This document shows, in pieces, positions 11,771 through 14,541 of a stretch of DNA of 64,000 nucleotides. The DNA is from an uncultured Verrucomicrobiae bacterium (GTDB lineage Bacteria > Verrucomicrobiota > Verrucomicrobiia > Limisphaerales > Palsa-1400), in the NCBI GenBank assembly GCA_963702845.1, contig OY969763.1, positions 4,384,001-4,448,000 of the forward strand. The letters are read 5' to 3'. The notes beneath the pieces were generated by a model. The model did not search any database. It was given only the letters and a program-made list of their open reading frames with translations, and was not told where the DNA came from. The translations under genes were made by a program, and so were the position numbers. Within the stretch, counting starts at the first letter, position 1. Every line of letters begins with the position of its first letter.

Positions 11771-12184
11771 ATGACAGCGAATGTATTTCGATATTCAAGC
11801 CGGGTAACGTATGCGCAGTGCACCGTGGGCAATCACATTTATTATGCGCGTTATCTCGATATTCTGGAGGCGGCGCGTGGAGAATTTGCGCGGGAGCTTG
11901 GGATGCCGCTGGGGATGTTGCAAGAGCAGGATACGATTTTTCCGGTGATCGGCGTGGAGATTTCTTACAAGTCGGCCGCGCGCTACGATGAAGTGCTGAC
12001 GACGGAGGTCTGGGTGATGGAGTGTGGTGGTGTGCGGGTGAATTTCGGAGCGAGGATTTTGAAGGAGGATGGGACGGTGGTTGTCGAGGCAGTGACAAAA
12101 CACGTTTGCACGACGCGGGATGAGAAACCGAAGAGGTTGCCGAAGGAGATTTTGGAGCGGCTCGAAACGCGAAAGCAGGTTTAA
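11771..12184 (+). CDS. YbgC/FadM-like acyl-CoA thioesterase (hotdog fold)
   Basis: HIYYARYLDILEAAR and YKSAARYDE pattern. Confidence 0.8.
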   Translation: MTANVFRYSSRVTYAQCTVGNHIYYARYLDILEAARGEFARELGMPLGMLQEQDTIFPVIGVEISYKSAARYDEVLTTEVWVMECGGVRVNFGARILKEDGTVVVEAVTKHVCTTRDEKPKRLPKEILERLETRKQV

Positions 12185-12239
12185 CGATATGCCGCCCCTT
12201 GTATGTCTCCTTTTGCCATTTCTTGTAGCTTTAATCAGT

Positions 12240-12427
12240 GAATAGGAAACTGGCACTACGTTCCGGCCTGCAGGCCGGAATGTAGCGGCGCAGGCGTGAT
12301 CGTTCGCCCCTTGGTCTCCCGATTGGGAAGCCCGTCCCGTAGCAGGATCCGCCTGTGCTTTTGCTCCGAACTCGAACCGTTGTTTGAGCGGCAATCCTTG
12401 AACGCTGCCTGCTCGTATATGCAAGAA
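12240..12427 (+). ncRNA. IS110 bridge RNA (predicted; ends approximate)
   Basis: 5' hairpin 12256-12285. Target-binding loop with guides CGCCCCT (12305-12311) and CCCGTAG (12336-12342). Donor-binding loop with guides ACCGTTGTT (12376-12384) and ATGCAAG (12419-12425). Confidence 0.85.
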
Positions 12428-13386
12428 TGAGTCAGAACATTGCCATTATGAACCATATCCCTGCCGTCGTCTATTGTGGCCTGGACGTTTCCAAAGCCTC
12501 TCTCCAACTGGACTTCAACCACCGGATTCACGAGGATCCAAACACCGCGCCCGGCCACAAAACATTAGTTAAGCGGCTGGCTTCAGCGCCTGGCATTCAT
12601 GTTATCTGTGAAGCCACGGGTGGCTACGAACGCGCCATCGTCGCTGCACTGCAAGAGGCAAACATTCCAGTCTCTGTCCTCAATCCTGCACGCGTCCGCC
12701 ACTTCGCACGGGCACAAGGCAGGTTGGCCAAAACGGATCCCATTGATACCACTGTTCTGACCGCTTACGGAACAGCCTTCAAACCCGCCTCCACCCCTGC
12801 GGCCAGCGCCTCTCAAAAACGATTGGCAGAATTGAGCGCCCGTCGTGCTCAACTCATCGATTTGATCGTCATCGAGAAGAATCGAGCTCCGATGCATTTG
12901 CTTCCCGAAGTTGGAAAATTGGCCCGACAACTACTGCGTCAATTGGAGGCTCAAATCAAACACATCGATAAACTGCTGGCGCATCTTCTCAAAGAAGACG
13001 GCGTTCTAGCGGACCGTGCTCAACGTTTGGATGCTATCGCGGGAGTCGGCCTCCATACTGCGGTTATGGTGCTGGCTGAAATGCCAGAACTAGGCACCCT
13101 CAACCGCCGCCAGGCAGCGGCATTGGCTGGGCTGGCTCCAATCAATCGTGATAGCGGTACCTGGAATGGTCCCCGTTCGATTGGCGGCGGTCGCGCCAGT
13201 ACCCGCAGAACTCTTTACATGGCCGCATTAACTGCCAGTCAATATAACAGACACCTAAAGCTCTTTTATCAACGGCTCAAAGACGCCGGCAAACCATCGA
13301 AAGTGGCCCTAACGGCTGTCATGAGAAAGTTGATCATCCTGATGAACCAAATCTTAAAAAACCCAAACTTCATCCTTGCCAGTTAA
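12427..13386 (+). CDS. IS110-family DEDD recombinase/transposase
   Basis: GLDVSK, CEATGGYE and KTDPID (DEDD RuvC-like) motifs, plus C-terminal GLAPINRDSG carrying the conserved Ser. Start may be 12448. Confidence 0.96.
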   Translation: MSQNIAIMNHIPAVVYCGLDVSKASLQLDFNHRIHEDPNTAPGHKTLVKRLASAPGIHVICEATGGYERAIVAALQEANIPVSVLNPARVRHFARAQGRLAKTDPIDTTVLTAYGTAFKPASTPAASASQKRLAELSARRAQLIDLIVIEKNRAPMHLLPEVGKLARQLLRQLEAQIKHIDKLLAHLLKEDGVLADRAQRLDAIAGVGLHTAVMVLAEMPELGTLNRRQAAALAGLAPINRDSGTWNGPRSIGGGRASTRRTLYMAALTASQYNRHLKLFYQRLKDAGKPSKVALTAVMRKLIILMNQILKNPNFILAS

Positions 13387-13396
13387 CACCGTTGCT

Positions 13397-13438
13397 ACGG
13401 GGTCTGCGATGCTACAAAGATGTCGCGCCTACGGCGCT
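13397..13438. repeat. REP-like palindromic repeat pair (right part; left part at 12186-12199)
   Basis: GATGTCGCGCCTACGGCGC intact unit next to the interrupted unit TATGCCGCCCCT|ACGGGGT, between convergent genes. Confidence 0.75.
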
Positions 13439-13440
13439 GT

Positions 13441-14394
13441 CTAACCGAGAGCGGCGAATTGTTCGCGGCCTTCCATCAGATAGTCCAAATAATAGGACAG
13501 GCGCATTTTCATGTCGCCGCGTGGCACGATGGCGTCGATGACGCCGTGTTCCAAAAGAAATTCCGCGGTTTGGAAACCGGGCGGCAGTTCCGCCTGAGTG
13601 GTGTCTTTGATGACACGCGGACCGGCGAAGCCGATCATCGCGCCGGGTTCGGCGATGATTAAATCACCAACGCTGGCATAACTTGCCATAACGCCGGCAT
13701 AGGTTGGATCGGTCAACACACTGATGTAGGGCAACCGGGCCTTCGCGTGATATGCGAGTGCGCCGCAGGTTTTCGCCATTTGCATCAGACTGAACATGCC
13801 TTCATACATGCGTGCGCCGCCGCTGGTGGAAAAAATAATTACGGGCAAACCTTTATCGGTGGCCGCTTCTATCATGCGCGTCAATTTTTCGCCGACGACT
13901 GAGCCCATCGAACCGCCGAGAAATCCAAAATCCATCACGCCAAGGCCGATACGGTGTTTGCCGATGCGACCAATGCCAGTGCAGACGGCGTCCTTGAGGC
14001 TGGTGCTCTTTTTGTAGGCCTCAAGCTTAGCAGTGTAGGGCGCGACGCCGGTGAACTTGAGCATGTCCACGGCTTCCATTTCGGCGTCCATTTCTTCGAA
14101 TGAACATGTTTCGACGAGGGCGTGGATGCGTTCGCGCGCGGCGATTGTGAAATGGTAATTGCACTTGGGACAGACCTTAAGGTGCTCGTCGAGCTCCTTG
14201 TCGTAAATCATGCTGGCGCACTTTTTGCACTTCGTCCACAGGCCTTCGGGAATGTCCCGCTTTTTGGCCTTGGAAGTGGTCAGCTTCGGTTTTTTGACGA
14301 ACTGAGTCGCAGCGGCATCTGTATGCGGCGTGAGTGCTGGGTCGACCGTCTCGAGTCCGAGGGTCTTCTTGTTAGTAAACGAAGATGTGGCCAT
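13441..14394 (-). CDS. accD: Acetyl-CoA carboxylase carboxyltransferase beta subunit
   Basis: WTKCKKC...VCPKC zinc finger, GGSMGSVVGEK, SGGARMYEG, FAGPRVI. Confidence 0.96.
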   Translation of the reverse strand: MATSSFTNKKTLGLETVDPALTPHTDAAATQFVKKPKLTTSKAKKRDIPEGLWTKCKKCASMIYDKELDEHLKVCPKCNYHFTIAARERIHALVETCSFEEMDAEMEAVDMLKFTGVAPYTAKLEAYKKSTSLKDAVCTGIGRIGKHRIGLGVMDFGFLGGSMGSVVGEKLTRMIEAATDKGLPVIIFSTSGGARMYEGMFSLMQMAKTCGALAYHAKARLPYISVLTDPTYAGVMASYASVGDLIIAEPGAMIGFAGPRVIKDTTQAELPPGFQTAEFLLEHGVIDAIVPRGDMKMRLSYYLDYLMEGREQFAALG

Positions 14395-14541
14395 GTATGA
14401 TTTTAGACCTGCTGCGACTGCTACTGCAAAGTTAGGCGTTGGTAGCATAATGCATTACGGCGCAAACTCCACCTCTGCGTTTTAAACTTTTTGCAGAAGG
14501 CGTCAATAGCGGAAATTTGACGGCAGTTAAGCGCCACACGT

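Follow-up and report, generated by a model that had tools for sequence, protein, structure and literature searches.

A probable IS621-type insertion sequence with a two-loop bridge RNA at its left end in an uncultured Verrucomicrobiae bacterium

Introduction

The closest described relatives of the element reported here are RNA-guided insertion sequences of the IS110 family. In IS621 from E. coli, the recombinase combines a RuvC-like DEDD domain with a Tnp domain that carries the catalytic serine, and the residues D11, E60, D102, D105 and S241 form a composite active site (Hiraizumi et al. 2024, PMC11208158). The element has a long left end and a very short right end, shows a CT core at both junctions and lacks terminal inverted repeats. 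The RNA encoded by the left end consists of a 5' hairpin, followed by a target-binding internal loop and then by a donor-binding internal loop. The left guides of these loops are sense and the right guides antisense, with the core included (PMC11208160), and the donor shows greater conservation than the target. IS621 expresses the bridge RNA from a junction promoter with the -35 hexamer in the right end and the -10 hexamer in the left end, which are united in the excised circle only (PMC11208160, PMC11208158), and weak RNA expression from integrated copies has been reported (PMC13626964). Natural IS110 elements have been analysed with a nine-base left guide (LTG) and a four-base right guide (RTG) in the target loop, longer RTG occurring in some orthologues, and bridge RNAs were predicted in 85.7% of the IS110-group elements examined (Durrant et al. 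2024, PMC11208160). The corresponding guides of the donor loop are designated LDG and RDG.

Two other systems are relevant for comparison. ISCro4 / IS622 (PDB 9t56; 10.1101/2025.05.14.653916) belongs to the same family and its recombinase has the same domain order as the one described below, with a distant sequence; it was compared as a protein only. The elements of the IS1111 group (seekRNA or right-end bridge RNA) share the recombinase family and the RNA-guided logic; their RNA is described as lying in a long right end, and their subterminal inverted repeats as 7-17 bp long (PMC11208160).

The window analysed here is a stretch of 64,000 nucleotides from the genome of an uncultured Verrucomicrobiae bacterium (contig OY969763.1, positions 4,384,001 to 4,448,000). 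Positions 12200-13396 of this window are very probably an IS110-group insertion sequence of the IS621 type, the left end of which encodes a two-loop bridge RNA. The features given above for IS621 in domain composition, ends, core, RNA layout, guide strands and donor conservation are all found at this locus, and the promoter arrangement recurs in putative form. An earlier sequence-only reading of the same DNA had proposed the bispecific target-loop/donor-loop layout of IS621 bridge RNAs, with which both the covariation of the fold and the strand logic of the guides agree.

The Insertion Sequence and Its Recombinase

The element covers positions 12200..13396 on the forward strand and measures 1197 bp when a single copy of the core is counted. 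The sequence-only reading had called it intact and compact (about 1.2 kb); the first term holds at the sequence level, where the ORF, the ends, the helices and the guides are preserved, and the size is correct but ordinary for the family. The left junction reads ...ATGCCGCCC-CT-TGTATGTC, with the core at 12198-12199 (...GCCGCCC-CT-TGTAT...), and the right junction reads ...ACACCGTTG-CT-ACGGGGTC, with the core at 13395-13396 (...ACCGTTG-CT-ACGGG...). The same core dinucleotide is present at both junctions. The left target GCCGCCC and the core occupy 12191..12199 (+), and the last 5 nt of this target together with the core match the LTG. The right donor arm, TGTAT (12200..12204, +), corresponds to the first bases of the left end; it is read by the RDG and is the sequence with which the left ends of the family start. 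The left donor arm is ACCGTTG, the final 7 nt of the right end; it is placed with the core at 13388..13396 (+), as seen in this sequence and in the family. The right target ACGGG, read by the RTG, follows at 13397..13401 (+). The target GCCGCCC-CT-ACGGG and the donor ACCGTTG-CT-TGTAT that had been reconstructed earlier follow from these sequenced junctions.

The non-coding left end comprises 227 nt. The right end is reached only 8 nt after the stop codon, and subterminal inverted repeats of the IS1111 kind are absent. Terminal inverted repeats are absent as well, since none of the nine inverted-repeat pairs found in 12150-13450 connects both ends of the element.

The neighbours are the 3' ends of two convergent genes, a 4HBT thioesterase gene (11771-12184, +) and accD (13441-14448, -), and the insertion between them disrupts neither gene. 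In two genomes of the same genus the spacing between the thioesterase gene and accD is 86 and 28 nt and the element is absent. The intergenic DNA of both genomes is not alignable to the flanks of the element; consequently, relatives do not allow a reconstruction of the empty site, and the target was deduced from the two flanks of this copy. A second small hairpin, GCGCC-TAC-GGCGC, is placed at 13424-13440, 30 nt downstream of the insertion site, and shares its form with the target, CCCC-TAC-GGGG.

The recombinase ORF (12427..13386, +) encodes 319 amino acids with the Pfam domains DEDD_Tnp_IS110 (PF01548, 2.2e-19) and Transposase_20 (PF02371, 4e-16). The protein matches the NCBIfam model NF033542, "IS110 family RNA-guided transposase", with 189.6 bits (cut-off 140). 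The best PDB relatives are, by a hair, ISCro4 (9t56, E 1.5e-34, residues 16-312 aligned) and the distantly related IS621 recombinase (8wt6, E 2.1e-34), with approximately 300 residues aligned. In the alignment, D20, E62, D104, D107 and S243-G244 are placed opposite D11, E60, D102, D105 and S241-G242 of IS621, in line with the earlier claim that the ORF keeps the DEDD residues and the catalytic serine.

The recombinase protein was found (E <= 1e-20) in 11 of 61 related genomes, that of the window included, and at the same threshold it was not found in two same-genus genomes, 73% and 67% complete. A scan of genome contigs yielded 79 homologous loci with 47-63% identity, most of them labelled Verrucomicrobiota, and a scan of metagenome contigs yielded 80 loci with up to 65% identity. 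A second copy of the same element was not found in these two collections, the best matches being 63% and 65% identical. A few homologous loci are in bins labelled Klebsiella, Bifidobacteriaceae, Actinomycetota, Saccharimonadales or Aquabacterium. The contigs in question are short, which makes mis-binning likely, and horizontal transfer may also be their source. The genome of the window contains three other DEDD_Tnp_IS110 genes, each scoring 68.4 bits, at genome coordinates 97849-98292 (-), 1599929-1600372 (+) and 2835674-2836117 (-). Their equal scores point to a second IS110-family element present three times, with DNA unrelated to that of the element under study.

Structure of the Left-End RNA

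The left end contains a 5' hairpin and two loop modules. The hairpin (12256..12285, +) has 13 bp; it is also detected as a repeat with 93% complementarity, and is present in the minimum free energy (MFE) fold and in the covariation of the family. The target-binding loop module (12287..12359, +), in which guides and flanks covary, is closed by a basal stem formed by 12287-12301 and 12346-12359, where CAGGCG.GATC (12291-12301) faces GATCCGCCTG (12346-12355). An inner hairpin at about 12312-12334 (+) is placed between the LTG and the RTG. The donor-binding loop module (12370..12432, +) overlaps the ATG at 12427. It has a closing stem, ACUC (12370-12373) with GAGU (12429-12432), and an inner stem, GAGCGGCA (12386-12393) with TGCC.GCTC (12406-12414). 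A possible extra 5' stem-loop at 12218..12250 (+) is part of the MFE fold and is weakly supported in the family register (62.2% paired).

The 5' hairpin, the stem of 12291-12301 with 12346-12355, the inner hairpin of the target loop and the inner stem of the donor loop had been proposed by the sequence-only reading, and all of them were recovered; in the family alignment the first of these stems extends to 12287-12301 / 12346-12359. Folding of the left end points in the same direction, with an MFE of -94.4 kcal/mol for 12200-12440 versus -73.3 +/- 4.9 for shuffled sequences (z = -4.33), none of the 200 shuffles being as stable.

The comparison with relatives started from 56 distinct left ends, besides that of the window, that were kept after the removal of duplicates. 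Four of these (L012, L013, L074 and L089) were distant, truncated or misaligned and were excluded; the remaining 52 were aligned with the window to give 53 sequences. RNAalifold predicted 31 pairs, 27 of which show compensatory changes, and left all four guide segments unpaired. On its own, the program recovered the 5' hairpin together with the basal stem of the target loop and the inner stem of the donor loop. When the target loop's inner hairpin and the 4-bp stem that closes the donor loop are added, the structure has 40 pairs. Over the 53 left ends, 90.8% of the cells of this structure are paired, versus 71.0% with shuffled partners and 34.9-42.8% with slid partners, and 34 of the 40 pairs change on both sides; none of 500 shuffles reached any of these measures. 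The basal stem of the target loop has 13 pairs, 12 of them with compensatory changes, and is 96.2% paired, and helices 6 and 7 of the donor loop are 96.1% and 95.5% paired. The closing stem of the donor loop is 96.1% paired, with compensatory changes in two of its four pairs, and in one subgroup ACUC/GAGU is replaced by GAUC/GAUC. In a second alignment of 32 left ends, all 14 pairs of the 5' hairpin show compensatory changes and 94.9% of the cells are paired. The two-internal-loop architecture of the left-end RNA is backed by compensatory changes in the 53 sequences.

The span of 12240..12427 that had been assigned to the RNA is right in content and wrong at its end. The closing stem of the donor loop covers the start codon and therefore the RNA reaches beyond 12427, with paired bases up to 12432. 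On the other side, position 12240 is arbitrary and the RNA probably begins upstream of it.

The two loops open alike, with a stem that ends in UC, then G plus 1-2 nt, and then the left guide: GAUC-GUU-LTG (12298-12304) in the target loop and ACUC-GA-LDG (12370-12375) in the donor loop. The two modules resemble duplicates of each other, as has been described for the two loops of IS621. Rfam 15 gave no relevant match in 11900-13700 (one chance miRNA match, E 0.78) and none in seven related loci. A terminator-like site at 12342-12356 is not significant, with one such site found versus 1.5 expected.

Guides and Their Covariation with the Flanks

All four guides can be read in this copy, at the positions given by the sequence-only reading. 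The LTG, CGCCCCT (12305-12311, +), equals the left target plus core in seven of seven positions, and the RTG, CCCGTAG (12336-12342, +), is in all seven positions the reverse complement of CTACGGG. The LDG, ACCGTTG(TT) (12376-12384, +), includes the terminal 7 nt of the right end without mismatch (ACCGTTG, 12376-12382); its core positions are TT (UU) where the core is CT, with one U:G allowed. The RDG, ATGCAAG (12419-12425, +), differs from ATACAAG at one G:T position against CTTGTAT. The specified target is thus 12 bp long, CGCCC-CT-ACGGG, and split 5+2+5.

In GC-rich sequence such matches could arise by coincidence. The target pattern CGCCCCT-N15-45-CCCGTAG occurs once on both strands of the 64-kb window and in none of 100 dinucleotide-preserving shuffles. 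The donor pattern ACCGTTG-N25-55-GCAAG, which is looser, is likewise found once in the window but is matched in 32 of 100 shuffles, the one observation in favour of coincidence. For this reason the donor loop alone is not significant within the window, and its support comes from the family comparison.

For this comparison, guides and flanks were extracted by anchoring on alignment columns. The genome set comprised 62 non-redundant left ends with 38 usable left flanks and 50 usable right flanks; 24 of the 62 left flanks and 12 of the 62 right flanks were dropped before counting (end unalignable or contig stopped). The LTG matched the left flank at 3.86 of 5 positions over 35 unique pairs, versus 1.99 when shuffled, and the RTG matched the right flank at 4.31 of 5 over 45 unique pairs, versus 1.62. 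The outcome was unchanged with one pair per distinct guide (27 LTG and 34 RTG pairs). In the metagenome set, from which pairs already present in the genome set were excluded, the values were 2.85 of 5 versus 1.75 for the LTG (34 pairs) and 4.12 of 5 versus 1.83 for the RTG (32 pairs). The lower left value of this set is largely due to one guide class (CAACC-CT-GGGCT) with many unmatched left flanks. In each of the four tests, none of 10000 shuffles reached the observed match, so that the covariation of guides with flanks proposed by the sequence-only reading is found in homologues from two locus sets. The agreement falls off away from the core: on the left it is 0.77-0.89 from -4 to -1, 0.49 at -5 and at background farther out, and on the right it is 0.71-0.98 from +1 to +5 and 0.27 at +6 and +7. 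The RTG CCCGTAG is also found in two metagenome elements, L167 and L176, which adjoin CTACGGG as this copy does.

The donor guides follow the ends of the element in the same manner, as had also been expected. In 48 of 51 loci, all seven positions of the LDG agree with the terminal 7 nt of the right end, the right-end variants ACAGTTG (11), ACGGTTG (4) and ACCGCTG (1) included. The uncommon left-end variants TATAT and TTTAT are matched by corresponding changes in the RDG. The LDG varies across the family at its core positions, which are not kept as CT (CC 31, CT 13, AT 11, others). With the shuffle tests of the guides and the structure controls (0/500) both against it, coincidence is an extremely improbable explanation of the guide matches.

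Compared with IS621, the guides of this family are arranged differently. The target is split 7+2+2 in IS621 and 5+2+5 here; in the family, guides and flanks agree over the core plus 4-5 nt on the left side and over the core plus 5 nt on the right side. Contiguous pairing is possible for the RDG of this copy; in most relatives a 2-nt bulge would be required, as in the discontiguous RDG of IS621. At the handshake position described for IS621 by Hiraizumi et al. (PMC11208158), C12343-A12344 after the RTG could pair with the donor bases TG. The base that follows the AG of the RTG is C in all 27 distinct family combinations and can pair with donor G7. The handshake base of the donor loop does not pair with this target (A versus C), and across the family its agreement with target base 7 is a weak signal (0.52 versus 0.42, reached by 291 of 5000 shuffles).

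A large guide class within the family has an LTG ending in CAACC plus CT and an RTG for CT plus GGGCT, and its right flank is always CTGGGCT(G/T). It includes the metagenome loci L102-L145 and others, together with L026, L004, L024, L075 and L082. Among the metagenome copies of this class, six have a matching left flank (..CAACCCT) and about twelve have unrelated GC-rich left flanks in which the CT alone is kept. By their sequence, these twelve or so copies look like natural insertions that matched the right half and the core only, and recall the "half-match" recombination of a 2026 preprint.

The common target CTGGGCTGA is followed, 4-6 nt on, by a conserved hairpin in L004, L024, L026, L032, L037, L075, L082 and L085-L087. 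Examples are CAATCCC-GTT-GGGATTG, AACCCC/GGGGTT, AAGCCC/GGGCTT and AAGGCC/GGCCTT. The hairpin arms differ between genomes in a matched fashion and therefore change together. The hairpin resembles a REP-like or an RNA motif of Verrucomicrobiota, and no Rfam 15 family matched it. The idea that the family targets hairpin loops in general was rejected: the longest stem spanning the cut site averages 2.65 versus 2.52 for re-paired flanks, a value reached by 84 of 1000 re-pairings. Cut-site stems of at least 5 bp are found in 7 of 81 targets versus 2.9 expected, and this copy has a 4-bp stem, CCCC/GGGG.

A Putative Junction Promoter and the Overlap with the Start Codon

A putative promoter is formed by the joined ends of the element. 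The right end contains a computed -35 hexamer, TTGCCA (5/6; 13376..13381, +), which in the circle is placed 17 nt from a weak computed -10 hexamer, TATGTC (3/6; 12202..12207, +), of the left end; such a promoter would exist in the circular form only. Over 27 distinct family junctions, the two hexamers average 3.2 and 3.6 of 6. A sigma-70 scan gave no plus-strand promoter within the integrated element. A conserved CTTG...AAnnT was considered as a -35/-10 pair and discarded, as the alignment suggests that it represents the two strands of one stem (12218-12250).

The closing stem of the donor loop and the RDG lie over the start codon in this copy and over a GGAGG motif in some relatives. For comparison, the IS621 paper of Durrant et al. 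(PMC11208160) contains none of the terms 'start codon', 'ribosome' or 'RBS'. The overlap would suit a structure that is a mere 5' leader regulating the translation of the transposase, the likeness between loops and flanks being a by-product of a target preference set by the protein. Against this reading, the loop bases covary with the flanks exactly within -4 to -1 and +1 to +5, with no covariation farther out, a precision that a protein-only code does not predict and that disfavours such a code. The IS621 strand logic also holds, with the left guide in sense and the right guide in antisense orientation (PMC11208160), and a regulatory role could coexist with guiding. A leader without guide function is therefore very unlikely, and the bridge RNA is the preferred interpretation.

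The overlap leads to a tentative extension of the bridge RNA interpretation. The clade, mostly Verrucomicrobiota, could possibly represent a distinct bridge-RNA variant that combines a right-shifted reading of the target with a donor loop placed on its own translation start, with autoregulation or cis-coupling. In this hypothesis, folding of the bridge RNA or its binding by the protein would shut off the translation of the recombinase from the same transcript.

Copy Number and Mobility

The element is present in one copy in a one-contig genome of 6.03 Mb. The genome contains no further exact copy of the 12-bp target, a count with which the single-copy state fits, and 14 sites with one mismatch versus 23 for the reversed control. 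Variants such as CGCGCCTACGGG, with one mismatch, occur three times elsewhere in the genome. In four DNA metagenome runs, which come from four studies, contigs carry near-identical fragments of the element (for example 12263-12413 with one difference); none of these contigs spans either end, and no circle junction, empty site or second insertion was seen.

These observations bear on whether the copy is a fossil, that is, an element whose original insertion was guided by the bridge RNA and which is now immobile, single, fixed and silent. The single copy, the lack of another exact target, the metagenome contigs with neither a junction nor an alternative site, the missing promoter match in the integrated state and a GC content equal to that of the window (0.536 versus 0.534) are all consistent with it. 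On the other hand, the full-length ORF retains the five catalytic residues, no damage is seen in either end, in the helices or in the four guides, the match to the flanks persists, and the near-identical fragments come from metagenome runs of four studies. A fossil copy is rather unlikely, and the element may still be mobile.

Proposed Mechanism

For the IS621-type element, the bridge RNA would have roughly 180-220 nt and span at least 12256-12432, with the 5' hairpin followed by the two stem-enclosed internal loops. It would probably be made mainly from the circle, through the TTGCCA/TATGTC junction promoter. The target loop would specify CGCCC-CT-ACGGG, and the second loop, with LDG ACCGUUG and RDG AUGCAAG, would read the joined ends of the excised circle, ACCGTTG-CT-TGTAT. 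By analogy with IS621, two recombinase dimers would hold the two loops, and Ser243 would cleave after the CT core with the DEDD site provided by the partner subunit. The top strands would be exchanged first and the bottom strands next, and the circle would consequently be inserted at the core with no long duplication.

Significance

The bridge-RNA mechanism is already well known and the element adds to a known family. Its novelty is limited by the prediction of Durrant et al. for 85.7% of the examined elements and by the NCBI model NF033542, which already names the protein as RNA-guided, and the element raises no new question about its host. It represents one more natural orthologue, verified, for a family of tools that is being engineered for genome rearrangement. 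The four guides, the 12-bp target and the donor are readable, and the 100-plus relatives reveal which positions are programmable. The 5+2+5 split and the overlap between donor loop and start codon may interest those who design or compare bridge recombinases.
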